Virus record (IMG/VR): IMGVR_UViG_2565956635_000006
Location: 1-6,831 of that record
DNA: 6,831 nucleotides
Strand: one strand, 5' to 3'
Source: a virus
Taxonomy: Duplodnaviria > Heunggongvirae > Uroviricota > Caudoviricetes
Below, one piece after another: positions 1 to 6,831 of this stretch (position 1 is the stretch's first letter; the number at the start of each line of letters is the position of its first letter). Made by a program: the position numbers and the translations under genes. Below the pieces are notes generated by a model. That model was not told the DNA's origin and made no database searches. It saw only the letters and a program-made list of their open reading frames with translations.

Positions 1-516
1 ATGAAATTTAAAAAATGTCTTCTGCCTGTGGCAATGTTAGCGTCATTCACTCTGGCAGGATGCCAGTCAAATGCTGATGATCATGCTGCCGATGTTTATC
101 AAACCGATCAACTGAATACCAAACAAGAAACTAAAACCGTTAATATTATTTCCATTCTTCCCGCAAAAGTTGCCGTAGACAACGCCCAAAATAAACGGAA
201 CGCACAAGCCTTCGGCGCGCTTATTGGCGCTGTCGCTGGCGGTGTTATCGGCCACAACGTCGGGTCTGGCAGCAATTCCGGAACGACGGCAGGTGCAGTT
301 GGCGGCGGAGCTGTAGGCGCGGCAGCGGGTTCGATGGTGAATGATAAAACCTTAGTGGAAGGTGTTTCTTTAACATATAAGGAAGGCACCAAAGTGTATA
401 CCTCCACCCAGGTGGGTAAAGAGTGCCAGTTTACGACAGGTTTAGCCGTTGTTATTACCACGACGTATAACGAAACGCGTATTCAGCCAAATACCAAATG
501 TCCTGAAAAGAGCTAA
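1..516 (+). CDS. Outer-membrane lipoprotein with glycine-zipper domain (YcfJ / Rick_17kDa_Anti-like), 171 aa
   Basis: ATG at window position 1, stop TAA 514-516. Signal peptide MKFKKCLLPVAMLASFTLAG|C with lipobox LAGC; residue after the Cys is Gln, not Asp, so outer-membrane sorting is expected. Gly/Ala zipper GALIGAVAGGVIGHNVGSGS...GAVGGGAVGAAAGS resembles the GAVAGGVIGH motif of YcfJ-type lipoproteins (from memory). Upstream RBS lies outside the window. Confidence 0.7.
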   Translation: MKFKKCLLPVAMLASFTLAGCQSNADDHAADVYQTDQLNTKQETKTVNIISILPAKVAVDNAQNKRNAQAFGALIGAVAGGVIGHNVGSGSNSGTTAGAVGGGAVGAAAGSMVNDKTLVEGVSLTYKEGTKVYTSTQVGKECQFTTGLAVVITTTYNETRIQPNTKCPEKS

Positions 517-531
517 TAATCAGGAGGAGTC

Positions 532-1071
532 ATGAAGAAAGTTTTTCTTTGCGCCATCTTAGCCTCCTTAAGCTATCCGGCTATCGCCTCATCATTGCAG
601 GATCAACTCTCGGCTGTCGCAGAAGCGGAACAGCAAGGTAAAAATGAAGAGCAAAGGCAGCATGACGAATGGGTCGCGGAGCGCAACAGGGAAATCCAGC
701 AAGAGAAGCAACGTCGCGCAAACGCCCAGGCCGCGGCTAATAAAAGAGCGGCAACGGCAGCGGCGAATAAGAAAGCTCGTCAGGATAAACTGGACGCCGA
801 AGCCACTGCGGACAAAAAACGCGATCAAAGTTATGAAGATGAGCTACGCAGCTTAGAGATTCAGAAACAAAAACTGGCGCTGGCGAAAGAAGAAGCCCGC
901 GTCAAGCGCGAAAACGAATTTATCGATCAGGAACTGAAGCACAAAGCTGCGCAAACCGATGTGGTGCAATCTGAAGCTGACGCAAACAGAAATATGACTG
1001 AAGGCGGTCGCGATCTGATGAAAAGCGTGGGTAAAGCAGAAGAGAACAAATCGGACAGCTGGTTTAACTAA
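532..1071 (+). CDS. Secreted/periplasmic coiled-coil protein, Ala/Lys/Glu/Gln-rich (TolA domain II-like composition), 179 aa
   Basis: Consensus SD AGGAGG at 522-527, 4 nt before ATG 532; only 15 nt after the upstream stop, so it is operonic with the lipoprotein. Sec signal peptide MKKVFLCAILASLSYPAIA|SS (AxA cleavage site). The mature part is highly charged with AAANK(R/K)A-type repeats. Family unknown. Confidence 0.65.
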   Translation: MKKVFLCAILASLSYPAIASSLQDQLSAVAEAEQQGKNEEQRQHDEWVAERNREIQQEKQRRANAQAAANKRAATAAANKKARQDKLDAEATADKKRDQSYEDELRSLEIQKQKLALAKEEARVKRENEFIDQELKHKAAQTDVVQSEADANRNMTEGGRDLMKSVGKAEENKSDSWFN

Positions 1072-1109
1072 GCGATGTCAGTAACTTCAAGCCTATGATT
1101 CGTGAGTAT

Positions 1110-1140
1110 AAAAAACCCTCTGTAGTAACAGAGGGTTTTG
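1110..1140. terminator. Bidirectional rho-independent terminator shared by the convergent plus-strand operon and the minus-strand lysis operon
   Basis: Perfect inverted repeat aaaaccctctg (1112-1122) / cagagggtttt (1129-1139) with a 6-nt loop tagtaa. The GC core stem CCCTCTG/CAGAGGG is flanked by an A-tract on one side and a T-tract on the other, so the hairpin is followed by a U-run in both transcripts (UUUUG on plus, UUUUUUAUAC on minus). It lies 41 nt after the stop of the 532-1071 gene and 128 nt after the Rz stop. Confidence 0.65.
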
Positions 1141-1266
1141 TTCATTCATAGTGCAGGGTTCAAATCATTCCCACTCAATTATTTACGACATACATAACCA
1201 ATTGACTGATAACAACTTTCTGCAGCCTGATTTTCACCGTACCGTTTTATATACCGTCACCAAAAA

Positions 1267-1764
1267 TCAGTACCACGATTTTTGCTTCTTCAGTGAATCG
1301 TATTGCTGTTCGCAGGATTCTCCTGCAATCCGATACTTTTCAGCCTCAGCTGCTGTTGCGTTGTAAACTCGGTTGCTTTCTTCAAGCATGTCGGCGAGCA
1401 CACCGATGACCTTGCTGGCTGGCGTGCCAGTGGGGAAAGATCCGGTATAGTGTTCGGCGAGTCGCTTGGTTTTGTCAAGCTCGGCGCGCAGGCTGTCAGC
1501 AGCGGCATTAGCATGCTCAGCATCAACACGCGCCACATCGATACGGGATTGTGCTTCACGTTCAATTTGTGTTTTCTCCTGATCACGTTGTGACCTGGCC
1601 TTATCATCAGCCTGTTTCTGATCTTCCTGTGCCTGCGCATACCCGGCGTCGTACTGACGACTGCCGTGTGCATTCCAGGCTACAACTCCTGATATGACCA
1701 GAACAGCAAGCATCGCCATGATAACCAACTGTTTCCTGTATGCTTTTGCGAATGCCCAGATCAT
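1267..1764 (-). CDS. Rz-like i-spanin (inner-membrane spanin subunit), 165 aa
   Basis: ATG at 1764-1762 overlaps the endolysin stop TGA at 1763-1761 (ATGA overlap, translational coupling). Type II membrane topology: basic N-terminus [12 protein letters not shown] followed by one [20 protein letters not shown], then a long charged coiled-coil periplasmic domain rich in Q/E/R/D/A. Last gene of the lysis cassette and carries an embedded lipoprotein ORF. Confidence 0.75.
1290..1538 (-). CDS. Rz1-like o-spanin (outer-membrane lipoprotein) embedded in the +1 frame of the i-spanin gene, about 82 aa precursor
   Basis: Fully embedded alternative frame inside 1267-1764. Encodes [16 protein letters not shown]|C with lipobox LTAC followed by a Pro/Ser-rich mature region ([24 protein letters not shown]...) with extra Cys, the hallmark of Rz1 proteins. 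Start is uncertain: in-frame ATGs at 1538, 1523, 1514 and 1508, none with a strong SD. Confidence 0.5.
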   Translation of the reverse strand: MWRVLMLSMLMPLLTACAPSLTKPSDSPNTIPDLSPLARQPARSSVCSPTCLKKATEFTTQQQLRLKSIGLQENPANSNTIH

Positions 1765-2390
1765 ACCGCCAGCACCTTACTGGCAGTGATGTATCGCGCG
1801 CGCCGGTCATCAATGCCGTTCCGGCCACCATTGATAAGCAGAGTTACACGTGCAATATCTCCGGTATACTTCATGCAGCCTTTGCTGGAGAAGAACCACG
1901 CCGCGCTACGAGCCGCGTATTCGTCCTGCGCCAGCAGTTCAGGACTCTCCAGCAGGTCAACCTTAAGACCGTTTCCACAGTCACGATAGTTATTCAAACC
2001 GGTAATCTGGATAAGTCCGCGCCCACGGTAGTTCCAGCCATCGCCAGGAGCATTGTTACCCATGCGTTTGCTGTACACCAGATTGGCAATCGCTCTCTGG
2101 CGCTCAGGTGGCAATGGTGGTTCGCCTGCGCGTCGCCCCAATGCGTTGGCCTGTCCCTGAGTGAGACGCCCAGCCCGAACAAAGTTAGCCAGTCCGCTGA
2201 CGCTGTAGTTGAAATTTTCCTGCAACCGGGTGAAACCTCCAGACTCATGCCCGACCTGAGCAATAAACATTGCCTGATCTTCTGGTTTGCTGATACCAAA
2301 CTCTTTCATCGCAGAAGTTATATGCGAGAACCAGCGTGCGGCCAGCGCCTCGCTAATACCAGCAGCTCGCTGGAATTGTTTAATCTCCAT
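1761..2390 (-). CDS. Phage endolysin, glycoside hydrolase family 19 (chitinase-fold lysozyme), 209 aa
   Basis: Start ATG at 2390-2388 preceded by SD GAGGT (minus-strand context TCGAGGTCTAAACATGGAG). The 264-aa ORF in the track is a 5' over-extension; the upstream part overlaps the holin-like gene in another frame. Protein begins [20 protein letters not shown] and contains [10 protein letters not shown]...LQENFNYS with two Glu (positions 49 and 58) plus [12 protein letters not shown], consistent with GH19 phage endolysins of the SPN1S type (from memory). GC is about 58-67% in hand-counted 60-nt blocks. Confidence 0.85.
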
Positions 2391-2688
2391 GTTTAGACCT
2401 CGATACTTTGAAAATTTGAACGACGTTACCGCGCGTTTTAATAACCGCAGCGAGCATGACAGCGTTGATAATGACCTCAGATAAATCCACAGCCATTGGC
2501 GTGCGGAACCAGATTGCATAGGCGACACGAACAGGAATACTGGCCGCAGCAACAATCAGGAAATAAGCAAGCCATCCTCCCCACCTTCGGTGTTGAGAGC
2601 CGTTACGCCGGAATGTGACAACGCGAATTGCTATGCCAGTGCAAATAACTGCATTGGTGATAAGCAAAAAAAACTCATGCGTTACCAT
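2380..2688 (-). CDS. Holin-like / lysis-associated small membrane protein, 102 aa
   Basis: ATG at 2688-2686 with SD GGAG 8 nt upstream (GGGGAGAAAAGACGATG). Overlaps the upstream gene by 14 nt and the endolysin start by 11 nt. Two hydrophobic segments ([19 protein letters not shown]; [23 protein letters not shown]) separated by a basic loop, and a charged C-terminal tail KVSRSKHGD, which is holin-like architecture. Position immediately 5' of the endolysin. Confidence 0.6.
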
Positions 2689-3079
2689 CGTCTTTTCTCC
2701 CCGGAATTAACTCGCGTGGATTATCGGAACGGTGATAGAGCCATATACCAATACGCACAGCGACAATTGCTGACACGAATGCGCCTGCAGAGAAAACAAT
2801 CCCTTTTTCAAAAGAGTCCTGCGTGATGGTAGGGATCAGGCTGGCTATGCCGATAAGAATTGATGCTGCTGGTTTGTAAAAGAGAAGGCCGCAAAGAAAG
2901 CTGAGCATCGACAGGAGCACCCGGCGACGGATGGGGTACTCTACTGCAGAGGTAACAAAAATTACCGCTCCAGCCAAAGCACCCAAAGCAACCTCAGGAG
3001 GAACTCCTGCTATCACCGCCGCCAGAGAACTCATGCTAAGCCACTGATTTAAAGTTTCACTGGTTAGTTGAGCTGACAT
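2675..3079 (-). CDS. Holin-like membrane protein (3-4 predicted TM segments, charged C-terminal tail), 134 aa
   Basis: Start taken at ATG 3079-3077 (MSAQLTSETLNQ...) with upstream GGTGG 5 nt away; the track's start at 3088 is a GTG three codons upstream in the same frame. Hydrophobic segments LAAVIAGVPPEVALGALAGAVIFV, LLSMLSFLCGLLFY, ILIGIASLIPTI, AGAFVSAIVAVRIGIWLY, then charged tail [19 protein letters not shown]. First gene of the tightly overlapped lysis cassette. Confidence 0.55.
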   Translation of the reverse strand: MSAQLTSETLNQWLSMSSLAAVIAGVPPEVALGALAGAVIFVTSAVEYPIRRRVLLSMLSFLCGLLFYKPAASILIGIASLIPTITQDSFEKGIVFSAGAFVSAIVAVRIGIWLYHRSDNPRELIPGRKDDGNA

Positions 3080-3253
3080 GTTTTCCACCGTTTATATGCA
3101 TAACAACCTCCTGAACAGTAAAGCATTACGCATGATAAACCATTTATGGTTTTTTGTTACTTTAACATCGTCAATTCCCTGTTTTTCATGCCGAGAATAA
3201 AGCTCACCTTTTACATGACTCTGAAGAAACAAACAGTGAAGATCAGGTTGAAT

Positions 3254-3276
3254 ACCGCACCATTTAATGGCGCGGT
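3254..3276 (-). other. Stem-loop just after the stop of the small membrane gene (possible weak terminator or RNA stability element)
   Basis: Minus-strand ACCGCGCCAT-TAA-ATGGTGCGGT: 10-bp stem with one G-U wobble and a 3-nt loop, 6 nt after the TGA at 3284-3282. No U-tract follows, so it is not a canonical intrinsic terminator. Confidence 0.25.
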
Positions 3277-3281
3277 AGCAG

Positions 3282-3566
3282 TCAAATAGAGAAATAAACA
3301 CAAAAACAAAAAACAACAGGAACAGCAAAATCCAACAGACTTCCCACATCCCACACGCGTGGATCAAAACCTCCCCACCACGGCATGTTGATGCGTTTCC
3401 CTTTCCCAAACTTTTCTATCCAGCGATATTCTGCCTGGGTGTGTTCACGCGCAATGAAGAACGTACAACCGGCTATCGCACCGTAAGCCCAGTTTCCGGT
3501 AGAAAGGCCAACCAGTATCTGCGCAATAACCGCGCATACTGCATGTGTTATTGGTGTTGTATCCAT
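3282..3566 (-). CDS. Small integral membrane protein of unknown function (2 predicted TM), 94 aa, immediately downstream of the tailspike
   Basis: Start ATG 3566-3564 with SD AAGGA (AAAAGGATAAAAATATG); the track's start at 3602 abuts the tailspike stop and lacks an SD. TM1 AVCAVIAQILVGLSTGNWAYGAIAGCTFFIA, basic/aromatic loop REHTQAEYRWIEKFGKGKRINMPWWGGFDPRVW, TM2 LLDFAVPVVFCFCVYFSI. A weak hairpin follows the stop (see 3254-3276). Confidence 0.5.
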   Translation of the reverse strand: MDTTPITHAVCAVIAQILVGLSTGNWAYGAIAGCTFFIAREHTQAEYRWIEKFGKGKRINMPWWGGFDPRVWDVGSLLDFAVPVVFCFCVYFSI

Positions 3567-3602
3567 ATTTTTATCCTTTTTTAATTTAGCAAATTGATAC
3601 AA

Positions 3603-6377
3603 TTACACTCCTGATACTTCAATAGATAGTTGAATCTTATTTGGCATCTTGTTGCTTAAATATATGGTTGCAAAGTCAAACGAAATATTTAAGTTATTTT
3701 CATCACCATCATTATCTGAAAGAACTCCGGTTTTCAATACAACATTTTGCTTATTAATTTCTTTTAAAGGAGAAAAATCAGATCGGTCACCACGATGAAT
3801 AATAACACCAACTGCAATTACCCCATGAATATCAAGTATGTCGTGCATATCAAGGCGAACACATGGTACGTATCCACCAACAAGGATACTTGTAGATTTG
3901 TTGGCTTCAAGTGTTATTAGATATTTTCCGTCTGGTTGAACTATTGTTCCTGCTATTCCATCTGGCGTGTTGAACATACCGCAGTATCTGTATCCTGCTC
4001 CAACAGGAACAATTCTGTTACCGCCAAGATCATGGAAATTTCGAACAATTATTGCACCAGGAACAGATGAATAAACCATTACTGCCTCTGTTTGCCCTGA
4101 TACAGAGTCTGATGTTTCTGGGTTCGCCATGCATAAATTACCACCAAAATAAATATTTTGGATTAGAGGGGTGAGGCCATCATTAACCTCAAAACGTAAA
4201 AAGCCCTTGAGAACAGTCCTTGCGGTATTATTCTTAATAACAACAGGAAGTTCTTTATAGTAAGAGTTTCTGTCTGTCTGTGCCAGAGTTGTTTCAATAA
4301 AAACAAGAGGTCTGTGATTACGTTGAGTTGCATTCACAGGTTTGTACCTCAAGTTGTATGGCAAAGACATCTCAGTAAAACCATCAATATAATTACAGTT
4401 CTGAATCGTGAACCCACCACCACTATATCTTACAAAAAAAGGAGCCGGGCCGCTAAATCCCCTGACGTTCATTCCATCATACACTTCATTTAATCCGCGT
4501 ATTACACCAGCATAATACAAATTGACTGAATTGCCGCCTGTAAAAGTTGTTTCGTATGATGGGCCGTGTCCACCGCAACATGAATTTCTTGTATCGCCAT
4601 CAGGGAAAAATTTAACTCCATCATATGCAGTTCCACCACCCATCATCGTTGGATTTATAATGTTATTATACAGTGATACCATTTGAGTCCCGCTTACATC
4701 AAGCCCCCTCCTGCAAGCAAATGCTGTCATATCCACGACTGTGCAATAGCTGCTATTGTATATTTCAACACCATAACCAGTGCCGTTTGTTAAATCATAT
4801 GCACGGTTTGAGTATTCAATATATGGTTCTATTATTTTCGTTCTGTAGCTTGACTCAAGAAAAATTCCAGTTTCTGAAAAGCCGATTAGTTTTATTCCTT
4901 CTATATGCATATCAACAGCGCCATCTATCACAAGACCACGGAACCCCAAATCACCAGGAGATGCGTTCTGCGTGACAGGTCTTTCAAAATTGAAATCACC
5001 GACAATTCTGCCGTAGCATGGTTTTCTTTTATATATATTTGCCTTTCTTGTGATTTTAAACTCGTCTCCAACAGATGGTTTAAACGGGAATGGTCCCTGA
5101 GCATATTCAAATTTTGCTGTTTTAGTGTCGTAATCCCAATGAGTTATGTATCTTGATATTCCGGCGTTAGCTCCGGTGACACCTGTTACTTTTACCTGAT
5201 TGTATTGTTTTGTTAATGTTGCATCATTACCAAATGAGAATTCACCTCCGGATACAGATGCTGTTACGGTCGTTGAGTAATCATTGCTCGCAGAGTAGAA
5301 AAAATAAAATGCACCTGATATCTCCGCTTTTTTTGTTGCATTATCAAAAGCAGTAACAACATGCATTTCACCTTCACAAGCCTGTCCTCTATTATCTGTC
5401 TGAATTAAGCGATTGCCATGAATCATAATTATATCGCCTGCATCAACAGAATATGCTGAGTTAATTGATATTGATGTGTCACCAGGATTTATTGTTGAAT
5501 TATAGTCAATTGGCGTGGCATCTCCACCTTCGAGTCTTATGAAATAATCATCAATCCAGTTTGGACCAAGAGGCTCTTTTGCGGTTGACTTTAAGACAAC
5601 CTTGCCATCAGCTACCCAGTCATAGTTATAATTATCCCCGCCGCATTTTATGCGGCTAATCAAATACACACCAGAATCCCACTTCAGGCGTTTTCCGTTA
5701 GATGCGCAGTAAATGATGGCATTTGTTATTGCGTCTGTATCGTCAGTAATGCCATCCCCTTTTGCACCAAAATCGCGAACATTGACGATATCCCGCATCT
5801 TATCCTGGAACGTTCGATATACTGCCCCAAAACCATACTGAATAAACCAACCAAAACCACCAACAACCCCGGCGATTGCAGCATCGACATAATTACGCAT
5901 TGAGCGATTATTTACAGCATCCTGCTCAAGTGATGGATCTGCAAGGTTAGAAATTCTGTTTTGCTTTGCATCGTAATATTTTGCAAGCAAAGATGGTTTC
6001 ATCAATGCACGTCTGAACCACCCAAAACATCGCTGGATCAGCATCGTCAGGTAGTCAAATGCATCCTCATGAACTTCGGGGAAAAATTTTCCCTGATTGC
6101 GAAGATCAGTCTCCTGCACCACATCAAGCACACGCTCTATCGTGATTTTCCAGCCAGCAGCAAGCGGCGACGGAAGAACAACAGAACCGCCACTATAAGT
6201 GCCCGCCCCAGTTACCGTATAACCGGTATCCAGAACCAATTCTGTTACGTTACCGTTCAGGTCAGACACCTGAACAACCAGGTCTGTTTTTTTGAAAATG
6301 CGGAAGGTATACGGAAATGATGTCGTAACGCCGTTACCTGTGTATTCGTTGTGGTCAACTTCGGTTGAGACCGTCAT
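3603..6377 (-). CDS. Phage tailspike protein: conserved N-terminal particle-binding domain plus right-handed beta-helix (pectate-lyase-like) polysaccharide depolymerase / receptor-binding domain, 924 aa
   Basis: ATG 6377-6375 with SD GGAG 7 nt upstream (TCTGGAGATTTAACATG); stop TAA 3605-3603. N-terminus MTVSTEVDHNEYTGNGVTTSFPYTFRIFKKTDLVVQV...ETDLRNQGKFFPEVHEDAFDYLTMLIQR matches, from memory, the conserved head-binding domain of epsilon15/phiV10-type tailspikes. Residues about 199-222 (NVRDFGAKGDGITDDTDAITNAI) are the classic pectate-lyase-superfamily motif. Marked GC drop in the C-terminal two thirds. Confidence 0.9.
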   Translation of the reverse strand: MTVSTEVDHNEYTGNGVTTSFPYTFRIFKKTDLVVQVSDLNGNVTELVLDTGYTVTGAGTYSGGSVVLPSPLAAGWKITIERVLDVVQETDLRNQGKFFPEVHEDAFDYLTMLIQRCFGWFRRALMKPSLLAKYYDAKQNRISNLADPSLEQDAVNNRSMRNYVDAAIAGVVGGFGWFIQYGFGAVYRTFQDKMRDIVNVRDFGAKGDGITDDTDAITNAIIYCASNGKRLKWDSGVYLISRIKCGGDNYNYDWVADGKVVLKSTAKEPLGPNWIDDYFIRLEGGDATPIDYNSTINPGDTSISINSAYSVDAGDIIMIHGNRLIQTDNRGQACEGEMHVVTAFDNATKKAEISGAFYFFYSASNDYSTTVTASVSGGEFSFGNDATLTKQYNQVKVTGVTGANAGISRYITHWDYDTKTAKFEYAQGPFPFKPSVGDEFKITRKANIYKRKPCYGRIVGDFNFERPVTQNASPGDLGFRGLVIDGAVDMHIEGIKLIGFSETGIFLESSYRTKIIEPYIEYSNRAYDLTNGTGYGVEIYNSSYCTVVDMTAFACRRGLDVSGTQMVSLYNNIINPTMMGGGTAYDGVKFFPDGDTRNSCCGGHGPSYETTFTGGNSVNLYYAGVIRGLNEVYDGMNVRGFSGPAPFFVRYSGGGFTIQNCNYIDGFTEMSLPYNLRYKPVNATQRNHRPLVFIETTLAQTDRNSYYKELPVVIKNNTARTVLKGFLRFEVNDGLTPLIQNIYFGGNLCMANPETSDSVSGQTEAVMVYSSVPGAIIVRNFHDLGGNRIVPVGAGYRYCGMFNTPDGIAGTIVQPDGKYLITLEANKSTSILVGGYVPCVRLDMHDILDIHGVIAVGVIIHRGDRSDFSPLKEINKQNVVLKTGVLSDNDGDENNLNISFDFATIYLSNKMPNKIQLSIEVSGV

Positions 6378-6480
6378 GTTAAATCTCCAGATAGTCGCAG
6401 CACCCGTTGCGCCGCATATCTGGTTATTCTATTACCTGAAAAACCACATATGGATAGAAATACTGTGAATATAAATAGAT

Positions 6481-6497
6481 ATTACCTTTTAGGTAAT
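6481..6497. promoter_or_regulatory. Perfect palindrome ATTACCT-TTT-AGGTAAT, candidate operator for a phage-encoded dimeric regulator
   Basis: 7-bp inverted arms with a 3-nt spacer in the divergent intergenic region. The half-site ATTACCT recurs at 6431-6437. Function is inferred from symmetry only. Confidence 0.3.
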
Positions 6498-6533
6498 TTG
6501 CAAAACGTGCTGGATAGCAAACAAATTATTTGA

Positions 6534-6553
6534 TACTGTATAAATATACAGTT
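6534..6553. promoter_or_regulatory. LexA binding site (SOS box) overlapping the promoter region of the downstream plus-strand small ORF
   Basis: TACTGTATAAATATACAGTT is CTGT-N8-ACAG with an AT-rich spacer and matches the E. coli consensus TACTGTATATATATACAGTA at 18 of 20 positions. It lies 20 bp upstream of ATG 6574 and overlaps a TATAAAT -10-like hexamer (6539-6545), with TTGATA (6530-6535) just upstream. Confidence 0.7.
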
Positions 6554-6573
6554 ATTGCATGGAGAAGATTAAG

Positions 6574-6831
6574 ATGCAGCAGTATCACTATCCACTGGAA
6601 GACGGATTTACCGAAAGGATTCACACGCCGGGAGGCGTCAAGTCACTGGTGGAGGGATCGCACTTGATGAAATTACTCCGGGATCTCGATAAGGATGGAT
6701 TTAATGTCGATGGCCCACTTGCCGAACTGACTGCACTGATTAACTACGTCACCAGCTCACAGATGTCTATGCAGGATCTGCAAACACATCTCGACTATTG
6801 TGCCGAACAATTACGAAAACAAACCACATAA
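6574..6831 (+). CDS. Small acidic soluble protein of unknown family, predicted SOS/LexA-regulated (85 aa; 90 aa if started at 6559)
   Basis: SD GGAG at 6561-6564, 9 nt before ATG 6574; the alternative ATG at 6559 has no SD. Stop TAA 6829-6831 is the last triplet of the window. No TM or signal peptide; rich in D/E. I recognise no family; the C-terminal ...LRKQTT weakly echoes P22 Mnt (...LYKKTT) but the N-terminus lacks a ribbon-helix-helix motif. Confidence 0.55.
   Translation: MQQYHYPLEDGFTERIHTPGGVKSLVEGSHLMKLLRDLDKDGFNVDGPLAELTALINYVTSSQMSMQDLQTHLDYCAEQLRKQTT

Follow-up and report, generated by a model that had tools for sequence, protein, structure and literature searches.

A mosaic tailspike gene in an epsilon15/phiV10-like Escherichia coli prophage and its receptor-binding module shared with P22-like prophages

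How a temperate phage comes to carry a tailspike whose two ends differ in base composition, and what that difference says about where the parts came from, is the question raised by the locus described here. The window, by which we mean the whole stretch of 6,831 nucleotides that was analyzed, contains a long minus-strand gene (3603..6377) for a tailspike of 924 amino acids (aa). A preliminary description had read this gene as a conserved N-terminal anchor at ~50% GC fused to a beta-helix receptor-binding module at 27-43% GC, and had attributed the step to a horizontal replacement from a lower-GC donor lineage that switched the host range toward a glycan. Judged on sequence homology, the tailspike is a recombinant of two modules with separate histories, very probably (at roughly 0.88 by our estimate) exchanged by phage recombination.

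The prophage around the tailspike gene

The left end of the window is annotated as E. coli chromosome (1..1162, plus strand) and holds yfgH (1-516), yfgI (532-1071) and the host/prophage junction, in the region of which phiV10 matches over 27 nt (1111-1137). The yfgH-yfgI part was matched in 5422 of 5426 complete E. coli genomes. The prophage backbone follows on the minus strand (1163..3281), as identified from Pfam hits, the L001 annotation and DNA identity to lysis cassettes, with an Rz-like spanin (1267-1764), a GH19 endolysin (1761-2390), a holin (2380-2688), a holin-like gene (2675-3079) and an AT-rich gap (3089-3281). The lysis cassette shares ~80% DNA identity with the cassettes of epsilon15, phiV10 and Tyrion, and this end of the prophage is epsilon15/phiV10-like, with megablast matches to epsilon15, phiV10, TL-2011b and ZX5.

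The tailspike gene of this epsilon15/phiV10-like (Uetakevirus-like) prophage was assigned from its open reading frame, from RefSeq, where the identical reading frame is annotated in near-identical genomes, and from PHROG, where phrog_14558 ('tail spike protein') matches at E = 0. Its context is of the Uetakevirus type, with a gp19-like gene upstream and two holin-type genes, the GH19 endolysin and the Rz spanin downstream, and the gene order around it agrees with that of phiV10 and TL-2011b. The spikes of phiV10 (gp25, O157-specific) and epsilon15 (gp20) share with the window a homologous N-terminal anchor, the gene order and the prophage architecture, whereas their receptor-binding part is unrelated to the window module. 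The systems also differ just after the spike, where phiV10 and TL-2011b carry an O-acetyltransferase and the window prophage carries a small membrane gene of 94 aa (3282..3566, minus strand) that belongs to phrog_1443 (PHROG match 2.9e-54). No Pfam or PADLOC match was obtained for this small gene, and NCBIfam returned a sub-threshold match only (15 bits against 40).

Two parts of one protein with different relatives

The anchor module (aa 1-197; 5787..6377, minus strand), as delimited by homology, PHROG and AlphaFold2, comprises an N-terminal beta domain (aa 7-85) and a helical neck (~aa 100-194). Its DNA is 92-96% identical to that of sibling prophages that occupy the identical chromosomal site and carry other receptor-binding modules. 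Against these siblings DNA homology extends from 6831 to 5716-5788 and is found again from 3524-3574. Homology to phiV10 is lost earlier, at 5943 (aa 145), as is that to TL-2011b, at 6032; blastn to phiV10 gives 83% over 5943-6831 and ~70% inside the anchor. A Uetakevirus-type anchor of ~200 aa, homologous to those of gp25 and gp20, is thus present in the tailspike, and the anchor of the phiV10 spike has been defined as its first 205 aa (Pas et al., 2023; PMC10408124). In PHROG, the similarity of at least 16 tail families is confined to aa 1 to ~160-240 of the protein, with phrog_1171 and phrog_13893 among those matching aa 1 to ~230. Anchor matches in the PDB are Dpo31/Dpo36 and the Carin-1 tail fibre (8ck1), the N-terminal 125 aa sharing 46% identity with one chain in the solved Carin-1 assembly of tail and tail fibre. 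AlphaFold2 (monomer, shallow alignment) gave pLDDT ~90 for aa 11-80 and low confidence for the neck (aa 86-193). From its relatives, the anchor appears to be the lineage-specific part that fixes the spike to the tail.

The rest of the protein, the receptor-binding/depolymerase module of aa 198-924 (3603..5786, minus strand), was delimited by homology, AlphaFold2 and Foldseek. Its DNA is 98.9-99.4% identical to the tailspikes of three P22-like prophages (L009-L011), in which the same module is fused to the P22 head-binding domain PF09008, a domain for which the Pfam search gave no match in the window tailspike. The shared segment is larger than the module itself. It is a block of 2468 bp (3319..5786, minus strand; blastn) made up of the module, the 36-nt spacer that separates the small gene from the tailspike stop codon (3567..3602, minus strand) and ~81 codons of that gene. 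Identity of this block to the three P22-like prophages is 98.0-99.2%, its ends always lie at 3319-3324 and 5786, and the spacing of 36 nt is equal in the P22-like loci (CDS 5677-5964 and 6001-8652). The P22-like E. coli spikes concerned (from HB37, YP3 and 266917_2; e.g., WP_284729714.1 and WP_021556114.1) share aa 198-924, the spacer and most of the small gene at 98-99.4% DNA identity, while their N-terminus, the PF09008 domain of 156 aa, has no similarity to the window anchor and the copies sit in other prophage backbones at other chromosomal sites (bioA-ybhB, torT). Strain HB37 has both versions, epsilon15-like and P22-like. In a single pairing of prophages, window against HB37, identity is 99.3% in the module, 97.1% in the backbone and 95.9% in the anchor. 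Five copies of the block differ at 17-53 of the 2468 sites, and only two variable sites separate the copies by anchor type.

When checked separately, the two halves of the tailspike therefore find different relatives, as the preliminary description had anticipated: the anchor is epsilon15-like and paired elsewhere with other modules (92-96%), and the module is found in P22-like prophages (~99%). Its view of an exchangeable beta-helix receptor-binding module on a conserved particle-attachment domain is borne out, the gene being a recombinant by homology. One could suppose instead that no horizontal exchange took place and that the C-terminal part evolved fast in an arms race over a constrained N-terminus, receptor-binding parts being the most variable phage genes (PMC5380687). 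This account is already refuted and we give it practically no credence: siblings with anchors 92-96% identical share no DNA similarity whatsoever with the C-terminal part, spikes built on a non-homologous P22-type N-terminus match that part at 99%, and the borders are sharp to within one codon.

The 5′ border lies at aa 197/198 (5786/5787). In the DNA alignment the window tracks its epsilon15-like siblings through codon 197; from codon 198 onward it tracks the P22-like copy. Codons 198-214 (VNVRDFGAKGDGITDDT; 5736..5786, minus strand) form a short stretch of DNA that is kept across different module types and in both phage lineages. Two siblings with other modules (L004 and L006) are alike across this junction motif only, with matches of 66 nt and 46 nt at 80-87% identity that stop ~5 nt short of its 5′ end. 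The transition had been placed near the start of the pectate-lyase motif, which agrees with the Pfam and structural limits, since PF12708 starts at aa 197 and AlphaFold2 is confident from aa 195.

The fold of the module is clearer from its predicted structure than from its sequence. PF12708 covers aa 197-226 only, a cap motif (33.6 bits; gathering cut-off 27), and PF13229 (Beta_helix) stays under its cut-off (21.7 against 25.9 bits). In the AlphaFold2 model (monomer; mean pLDDT 78.8, mostly >90 for aa 200-660), the module is predicted to carry a right-handed parallel beta-helix followed by C-terminal beta domains, likewise the arrangement of LKA1 gp49, phi297 gp61, AP22 gp54, the Klebsiella K1 lyase and the Sf6 and HK620 tailspikes. 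Foldseek matched the first four at probability 1.0, with E down to 2.5e-14. Compared with the solved beta-helix depolymerases, sequence identity is 8-12% and TM-scores are 0.3-0.6, so that neither lyase or hydrolase chemistry nor substrate is transferable from them. The PDB holds no sequence-level relative of the module beyond the cap motif of 40-50 residues, and tblastn against 50,697 records of isolated phages recovered none with this module subtype, the one match being a stretch of 30% identity in Bacillus phage Mater. The detectable relatives that carry an organism name are all from Enterobacterales (Escherichia, Citrobacter, Plesiomonas). The signature of GH28 enzymes consists of the four motifs NTD, G/QDD, GHG and RIK in that order. 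Membership of this family, which the RefSeq name 'GH28-related' implies, was rejected: NTD and G/QDD are absent, which leaves GHG (aa 603) and an RIK that is out of order (aa 242). In NCBIfam the tailspike matches nothing but a rhamnogalacturonidase model, with a score of 16 bits where the cut-off is 500. Residues D328, R330, E502, R556, R557, D560, H604, E631 and D665 are conserved across the module family and are candidate catalytic residues, and we regard the module as a beta-helix receptor-binding and probable glycan-cleaving unit.

Base composition of the two parts

Split at the homology junction, aa 1-197 have a GC content of 46.0% (GC3 43.7%) and aa 198-924 of 39.0% (GC3 29.0%). Split at aa 220, the values are 45.9% against 38.8% for GC and 42.3% against 29.0% for GC3 (Fisher p = 0.0004), with a difference in GC1+2 (47.7% against 43.8%) that is not significant (p = 0.15). 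The four 60-nt counts of the preliminary description were reproduced exactly (51.7%, 26.7%, 36.7% and 43.3%), but the sampled blocks are extremes rather than typical, and the contrast of ~50% against 27-43% shrinks by about half, to ~46% against 39%. The flanks had been overstated as well: the endolysin has 54.3% GC (blocks 45-68%) where 58-67% was claimed, and the small gene 46.7% (blocks 30-58%) where 48-53% was claimed. A uniform profile had been named as the result that would speak against a mosaic, and the exact profile shows a significant step. The step falls inside the bracket of 5700-6000 given earlier for the transition; for GC3 the maximum-likelihood change point follows codon 265 (support interval, codons 115-296).

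The compositional setting of the family comes from IMG/VR, where a scan with the anchor alignment, on which our population count is based, recovered 70 complete spikes on the tailspike's anchor type that represent 32 receptor-binding module types. In 29 of the 32 the module falls below the anchor in GC content, and about ten types do not exceed the window module. Thus, low GC is no mark of a special or recent import, and a lower-GC donor lineage is not demonstrated by it. Sampling noise in hand-picked 60-nt blocks is an exceedingly improbable source of the step, although block values do overlap widely (27-52% for the C-terminal and 37-58% for the N-terminal blocks) and the blocks first sampled were extremes. 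None of 5000 codon permutations reached the GC3 change point, and the permutation p for total GC is 0.009, so that the step is more than chance; its recurrence in 29 of 32 independent module types leaves this account already refuted.

The low GC could also follow from what the protein needs, if a beta-helix rich in Asn, Ser, Thr, Ile, Tyr and Gly draws on AT-rich codons with no separate history of the part. The slightly lower GC1+2 of the module (43.8% against 47.7%) and the AT-richness of nearly all module types are in line with this, but the GC1+2 difference has p = 0.15 and the signal sits in GC3 (p = 0.0004). Orthologues that share both fold and family have GC contents of up to 51-52% (GC3 54-56%), and homology proves a separate history independently. 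We therefore regard an explanation from protein needs as very improbable and already largely refuted.

More weight, though still as an unlikely explanation, can be given to a recent import of the module from a phage of a lower-GC bacterial lineage, with the AT-richness as an unameliorated donor signature. The shift is mainly synonymous (GC3 42% against 29%, GC1+2 not significantly different). Orthologous modules (L023, L025-L027; 67-75% amino-acid identity) have GC3 of 38-56%, so that the window allele is unusually AT-rich for its own family. Window-type anchors are also found in Proteus, a low-GC genus. Yet no homologue from a low-GC genus was found, the named relatives of the module being those in Escherichia, Citrobacter and Plesiomonas, and with 29 of 32 module types below the anchor GC a single special import is not needed. 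The P22-like partner, moreover, has a head-binding domain of its own at 39-41% GC. The lower-GC donor lineage proposed earlier was not found, and exchange is demonstrated with one partner only, a second lineage of coliphages. On the reading of two recombined modules, the GC step would be a by-product of joining an anchor at ~46% GC to a generally AT-richer pool of modules, mostly at synonymous sites. A GC step inside the tailspike genes of this anchor family is the norm and is, alone, no sign of a recent or exotic import.

Exchange of the module and its possible receptor

From present-day homology borders we infer how the exchange may have proceeded. Epsilon15-like and P22-like E. coli prophages share the 2.47-kb block (3319-5786) as an almost uniform allele that circulates between them, most likely through recombination between co-resident or co-infecting phages. 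The 3′ crossover would fall in the conserved small membrane gene. Within a lineage the 5′ crossover would fall in the anchor; between lineages it would fall in the short conserved stretch that codes for the beta-helix cap (VNVRDFGAKGDG..TDDT). Because the lineages share only short patches of 5′ identity, a crossover between them would need microhomology or illegitimate recombination. As a consequence, adsorption specificity would be altered and the rest of the virion left unchanged.

The small gene is a candidate 3′ recombination arm. It has 84-97% DNA identity in epsilon15-like siblings with other modules, and its segment 3319-3500 is 92.9% identical to L028, which carries a receptor-binding module without DNA similarity to that of the window. 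It is kept 3′ of divergent receptor-binding modules in both the epsilon15-like and the P22-like lineages. A phrog_1443 gene also lies behind the tailspike in Lederbergvirus Gally, and in phage 21 it comes after the side tail fibre gene with one short ORF between. This extends its position after a host-range gene from epsilon15-like and P22-like podoviruses to lambdoid siphoviruses such as phage 21. Tentatively, the exchanged unit may be a 'host-range cassette' of module plus 94-aa phrog_1443 gene, with the DNA of the latter as a common 3′ docking arm in three unrelated temperate coliphage lineages and with a module that may bind a non-O-antigen glycan, a suggestion that we consider doubtful. 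The small gene lies within 700 nt after the spike in only ~7 of the 32 module types on the window's anchor type in IMG/VR, and is thus not a general 3′ arm. Pas et al. reported that Uetake- and Lederbergvirus prophages lack conserved flanking motifs (PMC10408124), whereas the window block has conserved flanks, a gene on the downstream side and a short motif on the 5′ side; the cassette, if real, would contradict that report.

Four of ten lysogens could be O-typed from RefSeq wzx/wzy names: HB37 is O6, KC-Dl-1 and YP3 are O4, and 201609 is O154. Neither O4 wzy nor O6 wzy was found in the other six carriers of the module. Where Pas et al. (2023) look for lysogens that share one O serogroup, the four typed here fall into at least three. 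O6 was rejected as the receptor, since HB37 is O6 but a chimeric query (module plus O6 wzy) found O6 wzy in 0 of 9 other carriers, and O4 was rejected as a sole-serogroup explanation, since O4 is confined to KC-Dl-1 and YP3, with 201609 being O154. In a look for a capsule type in common, a kps locus was not found in HB37 along the pheV island (three 49-kb steps). The genomes of 1517k and KOr019 are rearranged in the region used for O-typing by synteny. The usual rule that the spike of a prophage matches the O antigen of its host does not obviously hold for the window module. As part of the doubtful cassette suggestion, the module, with lysogens of O4, O6 and O154, may recognize a surface glycan other than the O antigen. 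A host-range change toward a glycan is a reasonable reading of the exchange, but the switch as put forward in the preliminary description is not supported, the lysogens having no common O serogroup.

That phages exchange receptor-binding modules over a conserved anchor is textbook knowledge. The main finding therefore confirms an established rule and breaks none, and the window tailspike is a clear but ordinary example of phages swapping host-range modules. Documented swaps include the endorhamnosidases of P22, Det7 and 9NA and the endosialidases of K1F and CUS-3 (PMC5380687, PMC10408124), serogroup-specific receptor-binding modules are common to eight coliphage genera (Pas et al., 2023; PMC10408124), and the anchor-plus-module architecture with horizontal transfer across Uetake- and Lederbergviruses has been described (PMC10408124, PMC5380687). 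In those cases, too, one receptor-binding module is found on different genus-specific anchors through horizontal transfer. The window differs from them in that its module subtype is absent from the isolated phages searched and its lysogens span several O groups. What this locus offers is a precisely mapped natural graft point at aa 197/198, just before VNVRDFGAKGDG, at which the same 727-residue module is joined to two unrelated virion anchors. Graft points of this sort are needed for retargeting phages or tailocins. The module subtype is one without an isolated phage or a solved structure and, given that its lysogens differ in O group, several serogroups may share the receptor that it targets.

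Two sets of relatives for one tailspike

The anchor (aa 1-197) and the receptor-binding module (aa 198-924) of the tailspike (3603-6377, minus strand, 924 aa) have different relatives. The anchor was compared with yfgI-site sibling prophages carrying different spikes (L004-L008), phiV10 and TL-2011b. DNA homology between the window and its E. coli siblings runs from 6831 down to 5716-5788, is interrupted, and resumes from 3524-3574, with the anchor 92-96% identical to the same-site siblings; homology is lost earlier in phiV10, at 5943 (aa 145), and in TL-2011b, at 6032 (aa 115). A protein search with aa 221-924 recovered proteins 98-99% identical over that stretch whose N-terminus is the P22 head-binding domain (PF09008). 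Megablast of complete E. coli genomes found 12 copies of the module DNA in 10 genomes, at least three of them within genes whose annotation reads phage head-binding domain or tailspike protein. Searched separately, as the preliminary description had proposed, the anchor leads to epsilon15-like siblings and the module to P22-like prophages, and the mosaic and horizontal replacement that it had read into the gene are proven by homology; the borders and the sharing between lineages are likewise shown.

The stretch at 3319-5786, comprising the module, a spacer and most of a small membrane gene, is 98.0-99.2% identical to three P22-like loci of E. coli (L009-L011), with identical end points. Five block copies differ at 17-53 of 2468 positions, and only two variable sites sort epsilon15-type from P22-type copies; the block is one allele pool common to two phage lineages. 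Between the window and the HB37 copy of the same prophage, the module is 99.3%, the backbone 97.1% and the anchor 95.9% identical, and the excess in the module fits a more recent common ancestry of that part. HB37 (NZ_CP053080.1), a chicken isolate, has both anchor versions of the module, one in an epsilon15-like (L001) and one in a P22-like prophage (L009), with 21 differences in 2468 nt. Two module copies are likewise found in strain 2452. The window alone has a cluster of six substitutions (3781-3786 and 3803; aa 864-866) that turns GESID into GDRSD near the C-terminus, where the other four sequenced copies mutually agree; a multi-nucleotide event and a compensated frameshift are both conceivable origins of the cluster.

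At the 5′ junction the window resembles the epsilon15-like siblings through codon 197 (...AVYRTFQDKMRDI) and the P22-like copy from codon 198 on (VNVRDFGAKGDGITDDT...). Similarity to siblings with other PF12708-type modules spans only a motif of roughly 50 nt (matches of 66 and 46 nt, 80-87%). In the AlphaFold2 model, aa 7-85 make up an N-terminal beta domain predicted with confidence, and the helical region after it (aa 86-193), probably a trimeric neck, is predicted with low confidence. From aa 195 onward the model is confident again, with a beta-helix followed by C-terminal domains, and the PF12708 Pfam match starts at aa 197, so that the crossover in the DNA and the border between structural domains fall together. 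On its 3′ side the block takes in the 36-nt spacer and about 81 codons from the start of the small gene, ending at 3319-3324.

The anchor-plus-module layout and horizontal module exchange are long established for P22/Det7/9NA, K1F/CUS-3 and HK620/Sf6 (PMC5380687), and both have been described for E. coli Uetake- and Lederbergvirus prophages (Pas et al., 2023; PMC10408124). The present tailspike adds another example, one whose module belongs to an uncharacterised subtype.

Base composition of anchor and module

The four 60-nt GC counts behind the preliminary description were reproduced exactly, and those blocks proved to be extremes, since the C-terminal part contains 60-nt blocks of 27-52% GC and the N-terminal part blocks of 37-58%. 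The values of 58-67% for the endolysin and 48-53% for the small gene did not hold (54.3% and 46.7% as computed). The GC step is real, significant and at the predicted place, its size being about 7 GC points and not 10-25: GC is 46.0% and GC3 43.7% for aa 1-197, against 39.0% and 29.0% for aa 198-924. With the gene split at aa 220, the contrast is significant in GC3 (Fisher p = 0.0004) and not in GC1+2 (47.7% vs 43.8%, p = 0.15). The likelihood change point in GC3 falls after codon 265 (support codons 115-296) and beats 5000 of 5000 codon permutations, and that in total GC has p = 0.009.

From 80 loci with this anchor gathered from IMG/VR, 70 with complete spikes, 32 module clusters were drawn at a threshold of at least 70% identity. 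Module GC is below anchor GC in 29 of these (means for anchor and module: GC 46.5% vs 41.7%, GC3 44.5% vs 33.1%), and a GC step is thus the rule for tailspikes on this anchor. Module GC spans 35-52%, which places the window module on the low side, with about ten clusters equal or below. Low GC is not a requirement of the protein, because module orthologues of 67-75% amino-acid identity (L023, L025-L027) reach 45-52% GC, with GC3 of 38-56%. In the P22-like copies the head-binding domain (the E. coli P22 type) is itself at 39-41% GC, and the step is accordingly absent. Import from a lower-GC lineage, as formerly proposed, is not established: no lower-GC donor was found, the named module relatives being Escherichia, Citrobacter and Plesiomonas, and such a donor is a possibility. 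The O6 O-antigen cluster of HB37 has 35% GC (31% for wzx-wzy), and the AT-richness of the module may be likened, purely by analogy, to that of other AT-rich, often-exchanged surface-glycan loci.

Gene neighborhood and the small membrane gene

E. coli chromosome with yfgH (1-516) and yfgI (532-1071) occupies positions 1-1162 and is present in 5422 of 5426 complete E. coli genomes. The prophage end starts at about 1163, its kin being epsilon15, phiV10, TL-2011b and ZX5 (Uetakevirus group); a 27-nt phiV10 match at 1111-1137 is probably the attachment-site core. The minus strand encodes a DUF2514 Rz-like spanin (1267-1764), a GH19 endolysin (1761-2390), a 3TM holin (2380-2688), a second holin-like gene (2675-3079), the 94-aa membrane gene (3282-3566) and the tailspike, and the plus strand a gp19-like gene (6574-6831). 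Eight complete genomes have this whole arrangement at 97-99% identity. A 264-aa endolysin form from a mechanical ORF list (1761-2555, minus strand; TTG start, overlapping the holin) is an ORF-calling artefact; both in RefSeq and in phiV10 the annotated endolysin has 209 aa (1761-2390).

The yfgI/Rz junction is an insertion hot spot (window 1072-1266; L005 2719-3177; L029 1444-4188), with IS200C in one relative and, in KC-Dl-1, the closest relative of the window, a 3.3-kb block of an AAA ATPase, an integrase fragment and a response regulator. An AT-rich non-coding gap (3089-3281, ~37-40% GC) separates the holin-like gene from the small gene; since phiV10 and TL-2011b have an O-acetyltransferase, a lysogenic-conversion gene, between spike and holin-like gene, the gap is a variable cargo slot. 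A second such slot lies outside the window, just past the gp19-like gene, and holds a YafO-family toxin with a partner gene in two siblings (L007 7742-8681; L008 7793-8732) and an unrelated 729-nt hypothetical gene in the HB37 prophage (L001 9870-10598).

The small gene (phrog_1443) is 84-97% identical at the DNA level in epsilon15-like siblings with other modules, and its part at 3319-3500 is 92.9% identical in the P22-like prophage L028 (gene at 5757-6053), whose module has no DNA similarity to that of the window; it therefore forms a homology island 3′ of divergent modules in both lineages. A core motif in its 94-aa product, FIAREHTQAEYRWI...GKRxNMPWWGGFD, is very conserved; the product matches nothing in Pfam or PADLOC and has only a sub-threshold NCBIfam hit. 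Further copies lie in L112 (4001-4288) and in lambdoid phage 21 (L111 4501-4794), where the gene follows a side tail fibre gene and one short ORF. The sitABCD iron/manganese transporter operon is carried as phage cargo directly after the phage 21 homologue (L111 4886-8335). Pas et al. reported conserved module-flanking motifs in lytic genera only (PMC10408124), whereas here a conserved phrog_1443 gene comes after the tailspike in both epsilon15-like and P22-like prophages, a small departure. Of the 32 module types that occur with this anchor, only ~7 have the gene within 700 nt of the spike, and it therefore cannot be a general recombination arm.

Proposed exchange route and evidence on the receptor

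Exchange would most likely proceed by recombination between temperate phages that share a host cell, as prophages or through co-infection. The two lineages do meet in one cell, as HB37 shows, and two same-specificity prophages per cell are the natural setting for exchange. One crossover would fall in the conserved small gene. The site of the other would depend on the partner: the anchor if it belongs to the same lineage, the short conserved cap-coding motif if it does not. The virion would stay as it was apart from its new adsorption specificity. We infer this crossover mechanism, as we do the enzymatic activity and the effect on host range.

Foldseek against the PDB matched beta-helix tailspike depolymerases, including LKA1 gp49, phi297 gp61, AP22 gp54, a Klebsiella K1 lyase and the Sf6 and HK620 spikes, with probability 1.0 and an identity of only 8-12%; by sequence, no solved structure was matched outside the cap motif. 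The module is covered by phrog_14558 and occurs in 0 of 50,697 isolated phage records. The RefSeq name "GH28-related" was rejected as a family identity, the GH28 signature motifs being absent.

Lysogens of these prophages usually share one O antigen (PMC10408124). O types read from RefSeq wzx/wzy names were O6 for HB37, O4 for KC-Dl-1 and YP3, and O154 for 201609; O4 wzy and O6 wzy are both absent in the remaining six carriers. This diversity among the typed carriers rules out an O antigen common to all lysogens and leaves the glycan target proposed in the preliminary description not established. The spikes catalogued by Pas et al. include similar multi-serogroup ones, for which those authors suggest a target other than O antigen (PMC10408124). 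In HB37 the O6 wzx is frameshifted (L014 11290-12544), and in 201609 the O154 cluster is broken by IS903B and an IS630 remnant (L019 19872-24016). With damaged O-antigen clusters, both may be rough strains, and their possible roughness bears on what the spike actually binds.
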